From contig JAAILG010000163.1 of the NCBI GenBank assembly GCA_012026655.1, forward strand, positions 62,001 to 126,000: a stretch of DNA of 64,000 bases, written 5' to 3'. Below the pieces are notes generated by a model. The model did not search any database and had not been told where the DNA came from. It saw nothing but the letters and a program-made list of their open reading frames with translations. Each line of letters starts with the position of its first letter. Within the stretch, counting starts at the first letter, position 1. Of this stretch, positions 3,225-61,639 are shown piece after piece. Source of the DNA: Hydrolagus affinis. Its lineage: Eukaryota. The position numbers and the translations under genes were made by a program.

Positions 3225-3660
3225 ATTGGGCAAGACACGAAATGTCTATTTCAGCCCATCTAGCCCGTTCCCAAATTAGAAAAATACCATAAAATCCTGC
3301 GTTTATCTTTATTCTCCAGGATCTTCAATGCTTCACTAAGATCTCCTCTTCCCCTTTTCTCCAGCAGAAACATTGCCATTTTCCACTGCCTTTCCTCACA
3401 GCTCAGGTCAGTAATTCCAAATACCAATGGAGTTGACCTTTGCAGCACACCCTGTAATGTCACAGTGTCCACGGCATTATTTGTGACCAAAAATATACCC
3501 GGTACACTTAAGTGGGGCCAAACCAGTCCTTTGAATAAACTTGTTATCGCTTGCTCACAGTTTTGCTGTGTCCCACTGATTGCTCAAGTGAACATCGTGT
3601 TTGCTTTCCTCACTGAACACTCTATTGCTAGTTCTAGTGGGAATTCTAATTTTGGAAAAT
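3225..3660 (-). mobile_element. CR1 LINE 3' fragment (decayed ORF2 C-terminus)
   Basis: ORF 3260-3490 reads LQRSTPLVFGITDLSCEERQWKMAMFLLEKRGRGDLSEALKIL, resembling CR1 VQRRATKLIPGL..LSYEERL..LGLFSLEKRRLRGDLIEVFKIL; upstream KANTM..LFKGLVWPHL resembles KANRML..LYKALVRPHL. Confidence 0.85.
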
Positions 3661-4124
3661 TAACGATTGTTATGTAGCTGATAAATGTGAATTTTTGGAT
3701 GGGGTTGGGAAGTTTTTTCTATATAGTAAAGAAAAACAGATTAATCAAATAAAGCTGCTGAAAGTACAACAGGATTGTAAGTGAAATAGCATCAGGGAGA
3801 CTTGTGTTCAGAGATTTCCCATCTCACTGCATTTTTTCAAATTTCTAGACGTTGCAGATCATTTGTTCAAGTCTACAGCCTCTTATATATCTCAGGATTA
3901 TTGTTTTTAACAGTCTTTTTAGTGAGTACAGATACAATCAACCCATTCGTCTGATTTGTGTAAGTGTGGATTCTTAATTGAGTAATGTTTTGGATTCCTT
4001 ATTTTATGTTTTAATCTGGTTACTCCGGTAGACTTTTCCTTCTGTAAATGTGGTTTGAATCATGAAATGAAATGAGAATTACATTCGATGTAGCAACTTA
4101 TCACCAATTTTTTTTGATTTGGTG

Positions 4125-4250
4125 GAGGTTGTTGATCAGGACACAGGGAGAAACTCCCTTCTCATTTTGAATAGTACCATAGGATCTTTATCATCTGGTT
4201 TGAGTAGGCAGAAGGGATCTCGGTTTAACACCTCAATCAAAGAAAAGCCA
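4125..4250 (-). mobile_element. Deu-domain SINE fragment
   Basis: gggagaaactccc..ttttgaatagtaccataggatcttt..aggcaga..cggtttaacacctca is homologous to the core of 11626-12058. Confidence 0.75.
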
Positions 4251-4576
4251 TAGGTGAACAGGGATTAAAAAAACAGATAACGATGTTCAAAAATTAAAGC
4301 CAGATGCAATAGGGCACAGTTTAGAAGCATTATTGACCATTCATAAACTTGTTTGTTATCGGAAAATATTTCTTATGTATCGCAAGTGGAAGCTAAGGTA
4401 TATCTTAACTGCTTACCAGAATTATTGTGGGCTAGTATTACACACTATAACTATATTGTGCTTTAGGCAAGAAGCCAAAGATGCACATCAGCAGTTAGGA
4501 CAAATAAAACATATTCTATATCCTCGGACCACTGCCTCTTTCACCCCTGGCTGTTGTGATCTTATAAATCGCTACT

Positions 4577-4749
4577 GGGGAGAAATTCCGTCTAGGTCTG
4601 GATTTACTTCATCTTGGAGAGCAGTTCGGAGTGCGCGGGATTTGCCAACTTGTTAACTTTGAAGTCGTTTTCGGGTATTTTCTTAAAAGAACTTGCAGAA
4701 AACCAACTTCAAAATTAAAGCTGTAATCTGGACCTGGGCGGTATCTCTC
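4577..4749. mobile_element. palindromic MITE-like element, family P copy A
   Basis: Left end gagaaattccgtctaggtctggatttac and right end gtaatctggacctgggcggtatctctc are imperfect inverted repeats; inner tttgaagtcgttttc/gaaaaccaacttcaaa is also inverted. Confidence 0.7.
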
Positions 4750-4991
4750 TCTCTCTCTTTCTCTGCACGAGTTAAAAATGCAATACAATTAAATTCTAAA
4801 TATTAGGCGCATCTGAAATACGTTATGATTTGGTGATTCGCAGCTTGATCTAAGTAACTTTGTTTCAATATTTTAACGCCGGGAATGGTGAACATTTTGC
4901 AATTCTGAAGTCATTGGAGGACTTAAGAAACTGACTTACCCACTTGTAAGTCGATAGACAAATGTATCATTGTCCTGCACCAAAGAAACTG

Positions 4992-5100
4992 AATAATAAT
5001 AATCCTTGCATTTAATGTGGTGCCTTAACACTTCCTTGAGATGTTTCAAAGCATTTCACAGAATATACTGTGAAGGTGATTCACTGTGTATTTTGTGGAT
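4992..5100 (-). mobile_element. SINE 3' fragment
   Basis: aataataataatccttgcattt...cacagaatatactgtgaagg. Confidence 0.8.
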
Positions 5101-5296
5101 GATGCTGAAGACCTTAAACACCAAAGAAGAATCAATAGTTGGGCCAATCTTCCCTGAGAGATTGCCAATGAATTGAGCAGCGAGGTTGACATTATGCAGT
5201 CTGTTTTCTTCCATTCTCCCAGGTCTCTGCCCTCGAAAGGGGCTTTCTCCCCCAATTGACCATCATTTCGATTTAAGATTCTTGTAATGGTAATCT

Positions 5297-9006: not shown

Positions 9007-9656
9007 CAGTGTGTTGCACCTGGAAGTTGGTTAAGCCCATAAGTAAGGACAACATCATCATAGTGACACCTAGATAGACATAATATCCACTTCTTGAGAA
9101 AGCCCATCACATCACCTTACTTTCGATCAAACAAGATGAATAAATTATGAGATATTTATGCCAACAATGCAGAAAAGTCAGGGGCTGGGGTGACTTCTGC
9201 ACTCCAGGGCGATGGGTTGGAGCTGGAATGGAAGCTAATGCAGGGGAAGCACTCGCACCAGTCTCTGGCGTGCACCCCAGTGTTAGAACGTGTATACAAT
9301 ACCTTGTCTGTAATCTCAGGGCAGCTGCAGGAATTAATACAAATACCTACTGCTTGGCCCAAGGCTGCCGACCAGATGGTATTGGGCTGAGCATTGCCAG
9401 CAACCTTGGTGCGGTGAATAGACCATCTCAAAACCCTCCACGTTGTTGGGTGGGAAAATCAAACACACTAAAGCACAGGTTCAGCTTCAGAGATGCTGTG
9501 CAAAAGTGAATTGAGTTATTTTGTATTTGACCAAAGGTTCCATTTGAAAGGACTGCATGTTTTTATTAAAATGAATGCTAGACCAACCCTAAACTCTAAA
9601 TAAAGACATTTGTGTATGTGACATACATACCATTGATAACCGCACATGAATATATC

Positions 9657-9754
9657 ACAAAAACAGAAGTTGCTGGGGAAACTCAGCAGGTCAGGCAGCA
9701 TGGAGAAAGGAAAAAGAGTCAACGTTTCGGGTCCACAACCCTTCGTCAGAACTC
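9657..9754 (-). mobile_element. Penelope-like element terminal fragment carrying a hammerhead motif
   Basis: Minus strand reads gagttctgacgaagggttgtggacccgaaacgttgactc...tgctgcctgacctgctgagtttccccagc; minimal hammerheads are an established feature of Penelope terminal repeats. Confidence 0.7.
9716..9754 (-). ncRNA. minimal type-I hammerhead ribozyme
   Basis: Stem I GAGUU/GACUC, core CUGACGA, extra A, stem II GGGU-ugugg-ACCC, GAAA, palindromic AACGUU stem III, cleavage triplet GUU. Confidence 0.8.
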
Positions 9755-10749
9755 AACATATATCATGTCAGTGAGATGACAGGTGTACAGTCTATGGGGA
9801 GATTCTGTATACTGAAGGCTTGAATCGCAGTTAAGTTGGGGGCTGGATACTTGTCTATGCTGTAACCAACTCTGAATGGTTACATTCCTCTAAGTTATCA
9901 AACTAGAGAATTAAAGGCCGGGACTGGAGGGATCTCCTAGGTGAAGCTACCAATCCCTCCCTGAAGCGGAAAAAGTATCATTTATAAACAGGGCATTTTG
10001 AGCAGCTGGCATGAACCCAGTAATATTCAGCGCTTAAGTGAATTATGTGAGGAGCTTTACACATTCAAGGTACAGAATTCATGATGAACCCATGCAAGAA
10101 CTCTATTGTCTTGCCAAAGCTGTAAATGCTGATAAATCCTTAGCGATACTGATTGAATTATTGAATTAGATTAAGTAATAACTGCTCTAATGAAGTTTTA
10201 AAAAAAACACACAATTTTATTTTATTTTACAAAAACTAATCACAAAATTGCCTTCTGTTTAATATTGATGAGTAATAATTTATGCCAATATGTTTTGCAT
10301 TTTGTAAGGAGAACAATGATATTTATCATCAAACCATAAAGTCCGTGCATTATACATCCCCGTTTCATTAGTTCGTTTCTAATTTGCAGATGAACAAATG
10401 GGGTCTATGCCCAACATATTCACAGCATAACTTGGTTGGCACATTGGTAAGTATTGTAACCGTAGGATGTATTTCGGGAAGAGAAAGATAGAGAGGAGCA
10501 ACGAATTATGTTTTTCAGATACATTATTTGAAGTCAGCCACCAATTTTAATTGGGGGATTATTGGTCAGGGAGAACTGCTCTTTCTATTTGACCAACATA
10601 ATAAATGTTCTTGACTGAATACATTTTGATTTATGCATTAAATCAATAAATATTCGCTCAAGAAAAAAATTGAAACCACATCTCCGGTCGAACAGAGACT
10701 TATGCAGACTCATGCGAATGTTTGAGGGTGGGGAGAGGGAGGGGGGTGA

Positions 10750-39849: not shown

Positions 39850-40171
39850 ATAATAATATAACAATCCTTGTTTTTGATATAGCACTTTACATGTCTTCTA
39901 GACGTCTCAAAGCGCTTCAGAGAATATACTGTAAAGTGAATTGACTATATATGTATATGTGTGAGCGAAATGCGGAAGCTATTTGCGCACAGCAGTGTCC
40001 CATAAGCAGTTGAGGATTGAAATGACCAATTTTATTATTGTTTTTTTTGGAGAGATTATTATTAGGTGTGTGGAGTAAGGAAACTTGCCCAAGGTTTCAC
40101 CCTGCCTGAAATTGAACCCAGGGTCTCTCACTTGTAAGGTGAGTGCTCCAACCACTGAGCTATAGGACTCC
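39850..40171 (-). mobile_element. full-length tRNA-derived SINE (young family)
   Basis: Minus strand starts ggagtcctatagctcagtggttggagcactc..ctgggttcaatttcagg and is colinear with 26616-26923; decayed 17-bp target-site duplication. Confidence 0.95.
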
Positions 40172-45829: not shown

Positions 45830-46070
45830 TGGTCTTAATGTCAACTGGGAGAAAATGACTCAAAGGGGACCTTGCTGAGGTATATAAAATTTTAAATAGG
45901 ATTGAAAAAGTAAACCTGGATCAATACTTTAGGATGGATCAAGACGATAGAAAAAGAGGACGTAGGTTTAGAGTTGCAAAGAAAAATTTCAGGACAGATA
46001 ACACAAAGGTTTTCTTTACCCGGAGTGTAATTAATGACCGGAACAGGTTGCTAGGATGTTTGGCTGATTT
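45830..46070 (+). mobile_element. CR1 ORF2 C-terminal fragment
   Basis: GDLAEVYKILNRIEKVN..KRGRRFRV..FRTDNTKVFFTRSVINDRNRL matches the CR1 motif GDLIEVYKI..RGH..FFTQRVVN.WN.L. Confidence 0.85.
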
Positions 46071-46364
46071 TGGCTCATTACCTCACCACAAAGGTTTGGT
46101 TCGATTTGATTTCTGTGACTTTTGCATGAATTACATTTTGTATTGTGAAAATGATTTTGCTTTCTGATTCAGTTGACGTCAGCGAGGTGGTTCCTGTAAA
46201 GTCGTTCTCGCTGATGTTACAGTCATTATTGGCAATAGTCTGTGTACAACTCTTACATATATATAATTCAACTGCTTGTAAATCACAAGAAAGTAGTTTC
46301 TGGTCAAGTTACTTCAGCAGGTTGTTGTAATAAATAATGGATTCATAGCATGTATAGGTCGCTA

Positions 46365-47840: not shown

Positions 47841-48219
47841 TTAATCCCGAAACAATGTTGAACTGAAACTGAACTTGTTTTTACCTTTTTCCTTTGGCCT
47901 ATCAACTTAAGATCCATCAATTTAAGACCCATGCTAACCAAGGAGTCAAGGCATGGACTGATTCCCAATAATGGTGGGTGATCTAATTGCCAAAGCTACA
48001 GCAATTAACTTCCAGGCAGTCTTACCTGAAACACTCTCCCTCCACTATTATAGCCACTTGCTGGGCCTCATGTAACTCTGGTGCCATTGTTTTTAATAAA
48101 TATTATCTGACCATCCAATGGTTCCAATTTTTTTTGAACAAATTGCTTAATACTAGATTCAATCTTGAAACCTTTTGAATTTAAGATTTCTTTATCAAAA
48201 TATCCTGTTGAATACTTTG

Positions 48220-48590
48220 ACCTGTAACTTGCTGATGCCCTACCAACCTGTCCGCTCTCTCCATTCAGCAGACTCTGGCTCATTCTATGTCTCCTGCCCA
48301 ACCTGGGTTACCATTGACGGCCAGGCTTTCAGCCTCTCTGCCCCCACCCTTTGGAACTCCATCCCACAATACCTTTGGTTTGCTCCTTCCCTTGCCTCCT
48401 TCACGGCCCGACTCAACACTCTTCTCTTCGACCGTGCCTTCAGCCACGCTCCTTCCCTCTCTGCCTTCCCTCGTACCAACCCTGTGGCCCCCCATCCACC
48501 ACTTGGCTCCTGACCCCTGACTGTTCAGCGTCTTGGGACGTCCTCCCAAAGTGAAAGACACTCTACAAATGTAATCTTGTTGTTTTTGTT
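48220..48590 (+). mobile_element. L2 LINE 3' fragment
   Basis: PYQPVRSLHSADSG..GQAFSLSAPTLWNSIP..SLASFTARLNTLLFDRAF is the L2 ORF2 C-terminus; tail cttgggacgtcctc..aaatgtaatcttgttgtt. Confidence 0.92.
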
Positions 48591-50256: not shown

Positions 50257-50832
50257 CAACAACAACAACGAGATTACATTGGTGTAACACCTTTTATGTC
50301 AGGAGGACGTCCCAAGGCTCTACGGTCAGTGTCTCGGTCCCGAGCTGGGGGTCGAAATCGAGGAGAGTGGAGGGACCGGGGATTGACCGATGGCACCTTC
50401 GAAGAGGAGGGTCTTCAGGCGCGACTTGAAGGAGGCTAGGGAAGAGGTGAGCAGTAGGGATTGTGAGATGGAATTCCAAGTATTGGGGGCAGAGTTGCTG
50501 AAGGCTCGCCCGCCAATGGTGGGGCAGCTGGGTCAGGGGACATGGAGCAGGCTGAAGTCCACTGAACGGAGGAAATGGGCAGATTTGCAGGGGGTCAGGT
50601 GGTCGCAGAAGCAGGGTGGGGCAAGGCCACGGAAGCTTTGAAGGTGAGAGCCAGGATCCTTAACTGTATCCTCTGTCTGATGGGAAGCCAGTGGAGTCGG
50701 ACGAAGATAGGGGTGATAGGGTCACGAAGCCTGGTGAGGGAGAGGACACGAGCTGCAGAGTTCTGGATGCTCTGCAGCCTATGGAGGGAAGAGTTGGGAA
50801 GGCTAACAAGCAGAGAATTTGCATAGTTTGCA
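50257..50832 (-). mobile_element. L2 LINE 3' fragment
   Basis: YANSLLVSLPNSSLHRLQSIQNSAARVLSLTRLRDPITPIFVRLHWLPIRQRIQLRIL is the L2 ORF2 signature; (caa)n tail at 50257. Confidence 0.95.
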
Positions 50833-50909
50833 TAATCAATCACAATAATGTGATTGTGCTTTTTGTTTTTAAAAGGATAAATGCTCTGATTCATCCCAAC
50901 ATTGGAGTC

Positions 50910-50978
50910 ACTCTGTGAAGCGTTTTGAGGCGTCTTGAGGTCGTGAGAGGGCGCTGTATCAAATGCAAAGATTACTAC
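50910..50978 (+). mobile_element. SINE 3' tail
   Basis: ctgtgaagcgttttgaggcgtcttgaggtcgtgagagggcgctgtatcaaatgcaaagatta. Confidence 0.8.
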
Positions 50979-51281
50979 AATAGTATTAATCTCTCCTAAT
51001 CTTTAAAATTTATATATTAATTTGTTGGTGATTTTTTAAAAAAAAAAATCTTTCAGCTGAAGGACGTTGAGTACTTTATCATTACCAAGCTAGAAATGGA
51101 CTGCTGGCTGTGCATTGGTGGTATGATACAGGTTGAAACTACGGAGGCTGCTGCAGTATTCACCAGACGCACAAGAAAGGAACGCTGTCCTGTAAATAAG
51201 CAAGCAGCCTCGCAATATTTTGACTTGTATGAAATCTACTGACGTGCTCGTGGAAAGGCGAGACCCTTCTCCCGCAGCCCC

Positions 51282-55590: not shown

Positions 55591-58151
55591 TCTATTTTAT
55601 TTTCAGTTTAAAGCAATTCCCTTATTGAATGAAATCCTCAATTTAGCAAATGTAATCCATGTGCACCCTGAATTTATTCGAACCCATTAAGGTATCTTTA
55701 TTTTGTTTTTTAGGAAACAAAAGAGGAACAATTGGATTAAGTGCAATAAAAGGAATTGAAATTTCACAAAAAAGAGTCTTTTATTTGTAGAAAATTTGAA
55801 GATTTCTGCTGTTAACGCACACAAGAGAATGAGAATATTTTGTCCCTTTTTGTTTCTTTTTTTAAATTATTTTCAAGATACTTCATGACATTCAGTTGTT
55901 AATCCAACAATTTCACAAATGCTTTAAAGTGCAACAATTTTGTATTCCTTTTGAAAAGTTTTAAAATACACTCGAAGTCTCTTTGATTTCTAAACGATTT
56001 AAAACATACAAATTAACCCCGATTTAATATCAGCAAATTAATTCTTCATGCATTTACTAGCTATGTATAAAAGTAGTTAGGTTATCAAGGTACAGTAATT
56101 GTTTTAATTGTTGAAGGCAGCAGATAAAGTTGAATTAAAAGGACAGATTAATATCATTTGATTTTTATTTGCCCTCACATCTTTGACTATTGTTACAGTT
56201 TTACACATGGATATTTCATTGCTCAGTTAAACACGCATCTGTATAATTCGTTCAAGAGAATTCAGGTTTGCTTGTTTTCTTTAGTATCGAGAGAATTGTA
56301 AGTGAGCATTAATTTTGAGAAAGTATTCGATGAGGAGCAGATCATTTGGAAAATAGAATGACACAAAGGAGGAACAGGAAAGTTTGTTTTATATCAAAGC
56401 ACACAGTGCCTGAACAGTAACACCCAGTGAAATGAATACCTGCATTGAGCTCAAGCATGTGAAATTATATTTTATTCAGGGAATTTGAGAATTCACATTA
56501 TATCAGTGGAAATTTAAAACACTGAATACAAATGAACTAAATAGGCCAGACTGATACACAACAAATAAACTGAATACATAAATAATTATCACTTATCCTT
56601 TTATTGAGAATTTGATTTCATAAATGTTAAAGTATTACAGAAGAACAAAGTGAAATGATTCGAAATTCTAAATTTTGTTGTAGATTTATTTTGCCAACCT
56701 GATTTGGGAGTGGTAATTCAATGATTCAAAATGCATCAAATAAAATGCCTTAAAAATAAGATATATAACAGAAGTGTGGATATAATAGAGGGGGAAACAT
56801 TTTAATAATTTATCAATATTAACAAAAGGCCACAGCACAGAAATCAATTTTTTACTGGGAATTATTTCCATTTTTAGTGGTAAAAAGGTGTGTTTTTGAT
56901 TCAAATAAAAAGGCTGAGGCAATGCTAGTTTATATCATAAAACGTTATGAAGGAAGCAAGCAAGCAGCATGTTTCATAGCTTCTGGTTAACCTGCTAAAT
57001 CTGAAGAGCATGTAGTCCTTAACTTAACAAATCTTTAATCCTGATTTAAGGACCAGCACATTTTGGCAGTTTTAAAGGGGAAAAAAAAACAATGATCTAA
57101 AAGATATTTTTTTATTTGTGATATTTAATCGAGAATTGTAGACATACAATGCATTATACATGCTGGTTTCTACCAATATATTGCTGTAATAAAGTATTTT
57201 TTTCCAAAATGCATTGTAATACTAAAGAAGATGGGCTTAAATTATACATGAACTGTGGGCTGGATGAATTCATTCAGTGCACACTGTAGGTGAATCTTGC
57301 CTTGACCTTGATAGCCTGGGTTGTATAGAATAACAGTTTGGTGAAATGATCGGAAATTCTACCATTTTAAATGCTTTGTCCAGAGGAGCTGATTTCAGCA
57401 CTACTTCCGAAAAAGATATTGAAATTGGCTTTTCAAACAGTAACTGATTTTTCTCTGGAGCATGAACATTTGTTGAGTATATCGGTTTGCGTATGGGTTC
57501 ACTAATTTATTGAGAACATTTAACAACAGTCTTAGTAGAAAATAGCTGCAATGCTACACAAAGCAATTTAGAAGTATTAAGCATCTGTATCAGGGTGGAT
57601 TTGTATTTATTGATCATGATTATATAAAAGTAATATTCTGAACTGGATTGGAAAGGACATGTGCCACTAAGTGAAACATGCTTTCATGGATTTTGAAAAT
57701 TAAAGTTGGAATGTAGAGCTTAATAGCAGAAACAAAGTCTTGGGTCATTTCATAACTGAAGCATAATCATCATGCTTTGTGAATTATTAGATTTGATATT
57801 AACACAATATCACCTGCGTGAATAGATTTCTTTCAAATTCCCCATACTGTTAACAAAACCAAACAGAAAAATATATTCCTCCAATGGCAGGGAAATCCTT
57901 TTAGATTCAAAAATCCTTGCAACCAGGAAAGCTTTAATATCTGTATTTAAATATAAGCAGCTGAGATAATCTAGTCTCATTTATAAAGAGGGCACCTGAG
58001 CAGACAATTTGTTTCAGAAAACCCCCCTGCACCCACTCCCCATCACAAAAACACACTTTAATTCTGTTTTTTCATCTTATTTAGTTTCCGTTGATTTAAA
58101 AAAAATTAAGTGATACACGTGGCTACACATTCAATGGAATATTGGCTTTGT

Positions 58152-60265: not shown

Positions 60266-61639
60266 CATAGTTTGCTTGTTCTAAAATTCAAATAATCTAC
60301 TGATGGGATTTCATTCCACAGATGTTTGTGAGGTACTGGATTACACTGAGGCTTTTTGAATTCTACAGAGTATTGGAGTGTATTTGCCAGTCTGACTTCC
60401 AATGATGCTGCCTTTTGCACACCCTACACTTGTCTTAAAATTTCAGTTTATATACAAATCAACTGTCGTTTGCAGTTCAAACTTTTTATGGATCTGTAAA
60501 AGTGTAGTGCATTGCGTGAAATAAATATTTTCAGCACAAATGTATACATATATATATATAGTAATAGAATGCATAAGTTAAGAAAATACAGAAAGTGCAT
60601 TTGTTTCTGAAGGCTTTAAATACAACGCTATGTGGCTTGGGAATAAGATGCAGTCATTTTTTTTAAAACAATGTAAAAGACTGCTCCACAGTTCATATAA
60701 ACACCAGCCTGGAGGCCAATAAAGTGTGAATAGCATTGAAGGAAGAGTTCCCAGGCGGGTTTATCAACGGTTTTAAAATGTTTTGTAAGACAGCAGCCTG
60801 TCGAGCTAACAATATTGAACGAAGATGGGGAGATCAAACGTGTCGATAAGAGAGATCCCATCTTATTAACGCACTCAGGAAGCAAGATTAAAAGCAAGTG
60901 CAGTAAGAACATTTTTCCCTTTAGTGCCACGTTATGGATGCAATTAGATGTTGGACAAAGCAGTGGATTATATTGAGCCTTTCTTTATCCAACTGGCCCA
61001 AAGGTATTTATGACTCTTACTACTGTACTATCAACTGCGGTGTTGAGAAGCTGGTGAGGTGGTCACTCAGATGTGGTGAATCCATACACTGGGAGTCAAA
61101 TCTTACTTACAGCTGCTTTACCTCTCAACAATGTGAGTGAAATAAAGGTCAGACCTTGGTCTAAACAGCAACAAACTGGGAACTCCTCAACACATCAAAT
61201 TTTTCACCCAGAATGATTCCTCTTGTCCAATGCTTCACTGTTTTTATTTAGGATTATGATGCACAGAGAAGCCTTGATGGGAACGTGGGCTTTTTTCTGC
61301 TCTGTCTATGTGTCAATGTATATAAACTGCACTCAGTATTCCTCAATCAGCAATCAGGAATATGTGATGACAAGTTAATGCATGACAATTTGGATTGAAG
61401 TGATTCATAGACACCTGGTTCCTTGATTCATGAATGCTTTAAAACTTCCAGGTTACCAAAACATGGGTGTTTGTGAGACTTTAATCAATAGTACATTATT
61501 CAACATCAAAGAGCTCCAATTAATTCCAGTTTAGCAACTTAATGCAGTCGTTAATCTTGAAACTCAGACATCTATTGTGTTCAAGCTTATGAACTGTCCT
61601 TTCAATCTCTTGTTTTTGTTCTTCCTGATGACAGATCAA

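Follow-up and report, generated by a model that had tools for sequence, protein, structure and literature searches.

A Minimal Hammerhead Motif in Hydrolagus affinis as the Head of a Solo, Truncated Penelope-like Fragment

Does a complete but minimal hammerhead found as a single copy in the genome of Hydrolagus affinis act as a ribozyme, or is it a leftover of the mobile element that carried it there? The motif lies in a window of 64,000 nucleotides (assembly GCA_012026655.1, contig JAAILG010000163.1, positions 62,001 to 126,000 of the forward strand), to which the coordinates of the locus refer, and occupies 9716..9754 on the minus strand. Read from 9754 to 9716, this minimal type I hammerhead opens with the stem I strand GAGUU and the core segment CUGACGA (C3-U4-G5-A6-C7-G8-A9; 9743..9749), followed by an extra A at 9742 between A9 and position 10.1, stem II with its loop (GGGU, UGUGG, and ACCC; 9729..9741), GAA, the self-complementary ACGU, a single U, and the second stem I strand GACUC. 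The core is complete, since C3-A9 (9749-9743) are joined by G12-A14, A15.1, U16.1, and U17 (9721), and the G10.1-C11.1 pair is formed by G9741 and C9729. Stem I has four Watson-Crick pairs and one U-G pair, while stem II has four Watson-Crick pairs and can be closed by a fifth (U-G). In all of this, the sequence, core, and stem counts of the original prediction are borne out, and its GUU triplet with a predicted cut after U17, between 9721 and 9720 (9720..9721), is correctly placed. Its stem III, AACGUU, is palindromic as claimed, but the predicted intermolecular helix III of a dimer consists only of ACGU (9722..9725); the outer A and U of the palindrome are core A14 and the cleavage-site U17.

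The core letters by themselves prove nothing: shuffled versions of the window contain the bare pattern 1.08 times on average, and 65 of 100 shuffles have it at least once. A comparison with Rfam, for which Hammerhead_1 had been proposed, returned no hammerhead match, either at gathering score across the window or at E<=10 on 9400-10100. Evidence for a real motif therefore comes from its family. The exact 37-mer has 48 genomic copies (control 0), and intact cores, searched as a 14-nt spacer plus GAAACGTH, number 4,345 genome-wide against 25 for the control, which places the motif in a repeat family and beyond chance. Of the first 100 intact cores listed, 99 have GUU as their triplet. Downstream of the ribozyme, a conserved 18-nt motif (9682..9699, minus strand) serves as a hammerhead-independent anchor and has 10,301 exact genomic copies (control 0). 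The genome-wide copy count that had been proposed as a check thus turns out high. A search of the same genome (1.11 Gb, 245,464 contigs) with a 106-nt query around the motif yielded 2,190 first-look candidates, and the main matches among the 40 that were scored are 92-100% identical to the query. The repeat presumably resembles one that is common in cartilaginous fishes.

On sequence grounds, the repeat is the pLTR of a Neptune-like Penelope retrotransposon, with the clade read from a linker that Nematis shares. One copy (L011) has coding sequence for RT and GIY-YIG directly upstream of the hammerhead repeat, and its GIY-YIG piece matches the Pfam model at E 0.0077, just below the curated cut-off. 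Among 30 loci picked by their RT part only, most show RT, EN, 3′ region, and hammerhead pLTR in that order, and the 3′ region between EN and the hammerhead repeat is 300 nt long and pyrimidine-rich. A near full-length element of about 3.1 kb (L033; G000:C11589:1186-4891, minus strand) consists of a 5′ partial pLTR with tail, the body, and a 3′ pLTR with tail, and is flanked by a 12-bp duplication. Its 487-aa open frame contains RT motifs, a CX4CxxC linker, and a GIY-YIG motif, and matches Pfam RVT_1 at E 1.5e-6 with 28.6 bits, just below the curated cut-off of 29.6. The same linker lies between RT and EN in three further loci (L051, L056, and L059), and a Cys linker marks Neptune or Nematis (bioRxiv 10.1101/2021.04.23.441226). 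A tail of about 35 nt is present in 42 of 96 anchor-selected copies (by motif match), and blastn detects an inverted partner on the 5′ side of 54 of 99. Together with the RT-EN frame and the partial tandem pLTR, these are listed hallmarks of EN+ Penelope-like elements. The attribution of the motif to a minimal, dimer-type type I hammerhead of such an element accordingly stands, with an RT-EN-linked pLTR and the features of the class present.

The family also offers some observations in their own right. The 5′ body of the near full-length element repeats the 7-mer AGTTCTG of the hammerhead start (L033:3560-3575, minus strand), a possible template-switch site. In another locus (L030; G000:C17417:5745-8847), two head-to-head pairs of hammerheads, which belong to different subfamilies, are separated by about 490 nt. 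Four loci (L041, L042, L043, and L052) carry an inverted 3′UTR and pLTR 5′ of the RT region, which indicates that inverted partners can span hundreds of bases.

The copy in the window is a solo insertion composed of an 8-bp target duplication, a 4-nt filler, and 96 nt of pLTR headed by the hammerhead. Along the minus strand, the upstream copy of the target duplication, TGATATAT (9758..9765), is followed by the filler GTTG (9754..9757), the 5′-truncated pLTR fragment (9658..9753), which has the short 3′ end and no tail, and the downstream copy of TGATATAT (9650..9657). The last G of the filler provides the fifth pair of stem I. In copies that extend upstream, the place of G9754 is taken by C in 39 of 41 and never by G, so the fifth pair is a by-product of insertion. 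Helix I is 4 bp long in parent-type copies and 5 bp in the window copy, whose stem I is the stronger of the two. Apart from this, the window copy differs from the RT/EN-linked L011 by one substitution and one 4-nt deletion, the latter downstream of the ribozyme.

Neither the window nor about 26 kb of neighboring contig holds a second piece of the element, and no tandem repeat is found at the locus; the window and its flanks hold a single copy, and the nearest other intact core on the contig, among the matches listed, is about 58 kb away on the opposite strand. Contigs from run X1 extend from both flanks into the element with about 1-2% divergence, which indicates that the insertion is common to that sample, and they show no listed difference from the window in the covered parts of the element. 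An insertion shared in this way is expected under neutrality and is also compatible with constraint. A Pfam scan for a host exon (36 of 119 window ORFs scanned, >=75 aa) gave no match. Elsewhere in the window, two short frames (60740-60973 on the plus and 57273-57506 on the minus strand) have a protein-like composition and might hold host exons, with no Pfam match. Three others (45859-46164 and 48169-48510 on the plus and 50598-51002 on the minus strand) we take, by eye, to resemble C-terminal pieces of CR1/L2-type LINE proteins, and these too were without a match in the Pfam scan. A tRNA-like sequence (40097-40169, minus strand; Rfam tRNA, 41.4 bits) has a broken acceptor stem, and is likely a tRNA-derived SINE since a similar head lies beside the hammerhead repeat in another locus (L130).

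Intactness of the window motif could reflect selection or youth, and the copies speak for youth. Of 99 copies selected by the downstream anchor, 53 cover the whole motif. In these, non-CpG mismatches amount to 22/477 (4.6%) in the core and 99/1971 (5.0%) downstream (p 0.81), and CpG mismatches to 24/106 (22.6%) at core G8 and G12 and 40/212 (18.9%) outside the core (p 0.46). The core is intact in 23 of the 53, whereas 8 retain the core along with both stems and the palindrome, a figure lowered by 5′-clipped alignments. Two-sided stem changes are almost absent (2 cells over 11 pairs in 88 copies), the family being too young for covariation, while one-sided subfamily changes from U-G to C-G occur in the same 88 copies at stem I.1 (8) and at the loop-closing II.5 (32). 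Since the core decays like its neighbors, intactness in the window would reflect youth rather than selection. The core is somewhat better kept in 24 RT-linked copies (3/216 mismatches vs 42/1112 downstream), a small difference, and subfamily differences fall in loop II, at position 2.1, and downstream, but never in the core. The overall pattern of core mismatches and subfamily letters fits selection on master elements followed by neutral decay after insertion.

The 5′ ends of copies provide a second view of the ribozyme. Relative to the cut, 40 of 96 ends fall at -36..-29, of which 27 are at -34..-32; another 41 are spread over -28..+25 and 15 lie further upstream, with 8 of the 96 at -3..+2. 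Genome-wide, 29 copies have their first base precisely at the cut, preceded by three bases foreign to the element, compared with 30 and 53 at control positions -3 and +3, or about 1.4%, 1.5%, and 2.2% of 5,280 after correction, and by eye many of the 29 are inverted-arm junctions or small deletions. A cleavage footprint at the cut site is rejected for this family on these counts. Exact copies with non-element flanks start 275 times at -33 and 217 times at -34, numbers that used a different anchor and are thus not strictly comparable with the cut-site counts. With ends at the first bases of the hammerhead, about 33 nt upstream of the cut, the template would usually have held an uncut ribozyme.

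The pile-up hints that the RNA has a fixed start immediately ahead of stem I, to which we give slightly less than an even chance. The parent sequence at this place (corresponding to window 9750-9757) is CCAGTTC, which matches the initiator consensus YYANWYY and also resembles a splice acceptor. A splice event using the pyrimidine tract and CAG before the hammerhead was considered and rejected, with no GT..AG joint among the 15 listed of 28 joints in RNA reads. The Penelope element of Drosophila has an intron whose end falls at helix I (PMC4209133), and its promoter is within the pLTR (PMC2377424). Among the first 100 of the 275 copies, 47 have a G immediately before A(-33), where about 23.5% is expected (p 2e-7); the comparison with the -3 control (8/30) gives p 0.06. 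For C(-34), a hand count puts T at the preceding position in about 65 of 100 copies. An untemplated G has been read as a cap signature for L1 and SVA (PMC4859970). Among 19 solo copies with a script-found target duplication, taken from a crude inverted/solo split in which the window's own copy is mislabelled, none has a single-G filler and 7 are flush; many fillers resemble the head of the element copied a second time. A cap signature in the preceding G is therefore doubtful. No published description of this family or of its 5′-end pile-up was found in the literature searched, which was largely without subscription papers and Repbase.

RNA from the family is abundant. Three polyA runs, which are labelled with another organism code than the DNA, each place 3,420-5,234 reads on a 1.5-kb stretch, nearly all on the repeat and in both directions. 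The family thus occurs in RNA, be it from a relative or from the same species. Because the reads fall almost only on the repeat and may come from another species, the empty flanks say nothing about transcription at the window locus; the abundance of family RNA means, though, that partners could exist in trans. As for RNA ends at 9720/9721, which the original prediction had put forward as a check, no pile-up of read ends is seen across the motif in the three polyA runs, libraries that are weak for this purpose, and the predicted site is thus without a footprint among both genomic copies and read ends. On a full copy, reads are thin over the ORF and deep over the pLTR, again with no pile-up of ends. 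At the locus L034 (880-2970; runs X2-X4), one mate direction outnumbers the other several-fold among reads over the ORF, whereas coverage of the pLTR is symmetric; provided that the libraries are stranded, this would fit transcription of some full copies in the sense direction.

Folding predictions also favor inactive forms. In the best fold of the monomer, GACG of the core pairs with CGUU to give an inactive rod of -13.3 kcal/mol (43 nt, z -1.77) or -12.1 kcal/mol (39 nt). For the dimer, the active double hammerhead reaches -15.3 kcal/mol and the best structure, an inactive duplex, -30.5 kcal/mol; for each of the 14 commonest natural variants, the active dimer lies 13-20 kcal/mol above the best one. 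Nearest-neighbor energies penalize three-way junctions and ignore Mg2+ and protein, so the gap of 15 kcal/mol overstates inactivity, and such models, being free of Mg2+, tertiary contacts, and protein, show a bias and not inactivity. With this in mind, the lone window copy is predicted not to cut. Published data on the class point in the same direction, as a single min-HHR does not cleave and dimers show low cleavage (PMC4209133). Cleavage as a dimer is stated for the class (PMC6765202, in a passage citing Lunse et al.), an Anolis PLE hammerhead cleaves only with protein and insertion is possible without the ribozyme (PMC11167929), and GUU is an allowed but not optimal triplet (PMC9217987).

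Taken together, we consider it probable, at roughly 0.88, that the motif is the hammerhead head of a solo, 5′-truncated Penelope pLTR, likely inserted by the element's own RT/endonuclease, predicted to be silent, and decaying neutrally. Under such a mechanism, the element's protein would nick an AT-rich site and reverse transcription would begin at the shorter of two internal start sites, which would account for a copy without a tail. It would then run off a preferred template end at the first bases of the hammerhead; with this end about 33 nt upstream of the cut, the template would be uncut RNA. Selection for the ribozyme would act only on master elements, whose tandem transcripts may dimerize, probably with the help of protein, for slow cleavage. 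The original prediction, which recognized a PLE minimal hammerhead, is upheld in that part, but the copy-number-dependent cleavage that it derived from it is unsupported, given an unprotected core, no nearby partner, an inactive predicted fold, and no enrichment of genomic 5′ ends at the cut site.

Such cleavage would require solo copies in host transcripts to pair via ACGU and cut each other, scaling with expressed copies or element protein. The material for it exists in 4,345 intact cores and family RNA amounting to thousands of reads in each of three runs, and both the dimer cleavage stated for the class (PMC6765202 passage) and the protein-assisted cleavage of a PLE hammerhead in vitro (PMC11167929) lend it some credit. 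The reading is nevertheless very improbable: the core decays neutrally, the cut shows neither a footprint nor a pile-up of read ends (for which polyA libraries are weak), inactive folds are favored by the models, 54 of 99 copies carry an antisense partner of their own, and activity is low even for tethered dimers (PMC4209133). Equally improbable is a latent network of the thousands of intact solo hammerheads, in which the protein, once the Penelope element is expressed, binds pLTR RNA, brings together copies on different host transcripts as a double hammerhead via ACGU, and cuts both. If true, it would couple transposon activity to the turnover of many host RNAs without selection on single copies.

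Still less credible is domestication of the window locus as a ribozyme that acts in cis on a minus-strand transcript of the host, with the filler G lengthening stem I. The motif is fully intact, its stem I has five pairs, and the insertion is also present in a second sample; against this, it is young, with just a single substitution and a deletion of 4 nt separating it from an RT-linked copy, the junction G is common in the family (47/100), the motif has no helix III of its own, and no host exon was identified (36 ORFs, no Pfam match). An unlikely but somewhat better candidate is that the short copies descend from a non-autonomous master of their own, similar to a SINE or retrozyme and beginning at the hammerhead, and not from truncation of full-length RNA. 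The sharp 5′ pile-up (27/96 at -34..-32), the 275 and 217 exact copies that start at -33 and -34 with non-element flanks, and the description of monomeric retrozyme derivatives of PLE pLTRs (bioRxiv 10.64898/2026.07.22.740005) speak for such a master. Yet the short copies carry the subfamily letters of RT-linked copies, no tandem units are found, a same-strand upstream piece within 300 nt occurs in 0 of 99, and 5′ ends also fall at -28..+25 (41/96) and further upstream (15/96), all of which count against such a master.

As a fragment left by a Penelope element, the window locus is unremarkable, since stubs of this known element type number in the thousands. The 5′ ends of its family bear on the open question of the role of the hammerhead in these elements, as copies that start at the first bases of the ribozyme, and not at the cut, fit uncut RNA as the insertion template (PMC11167929). 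Trans cleavage between solo copies, if real, would give transposons a new means of acting on host RNA, and is unsupported here.

The kind of hammerhead was already published by Cervera and De la Pena (2014), who defined the min-HHR class and reported that the genomes of Xenopus and coelacanth each hold thousands of copies, most of them solo, and that the motif is present in fish Xena, Poseidon, and Neptune elements (PMC4209133). The present family may already be listed in the supplements of that paper or in the tables of Lunse et al. (2017). The motif described here shares with PLE min-HHR the core, the extra nucleotide after A9, the G10.1-C11.1 pair, a helix I of 4-5 bp, a palindromic 15.2/16.2 without loop 3, the seat in a pLTR, and the thousands of mostly solo copies (PMC4209133). 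It differs in helix II, which has 4(+1) bp here and 7-8 bp in the Schistosoma min-HHR families, and in the near-uniform GUU triplet of the listed cores; cartilaginous fishes are not named in portions of that main text (PMC4209133).

With EN+ PLEs of the Neptune clade, the parent element shares RT, a CX2-5CxxC linker, a C-terminal GIY-YIG, a partial tandem pLTR, an inverted 5′-truncated partner, and a tail of 30-40 bp (Craig et al., bioRxiv 10.1101/2021.04.23.441226), the assignment to Neptune resting on the linker, which Nematis also has. The Anolis Poseidon element PAc shows the same two 3′ ends with and without a tail, explained for PLE copies by two RT start sites, as well as a pLTR hammerhead, no RNA ends at the cut, and an AT-rich target (Frangieh et al., 2024; PMC11167929). 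Its ORF, however, starts inside stem II (PMC11167929), whereas the ORF here lies beyond the tail. The account by Craig et al. lists no Cys linker for the Penelope/Poseidon clade, of which PAc is a member (bioRxiv 10.1101/2021.04.23.441226). Non-LTR (metazoan) retrozymes, which a survey covering one cartilaginous fish derives from pLTRs, are likewise non-coding, with a type I hammerhead and an origin in PLE pLTRs, but form tandem arrays of two or more hammerhead units (bioRxiv 10.64898/2026.07.22.740005), in contrast to the solo 100-nt insertion with target duplication in the window.
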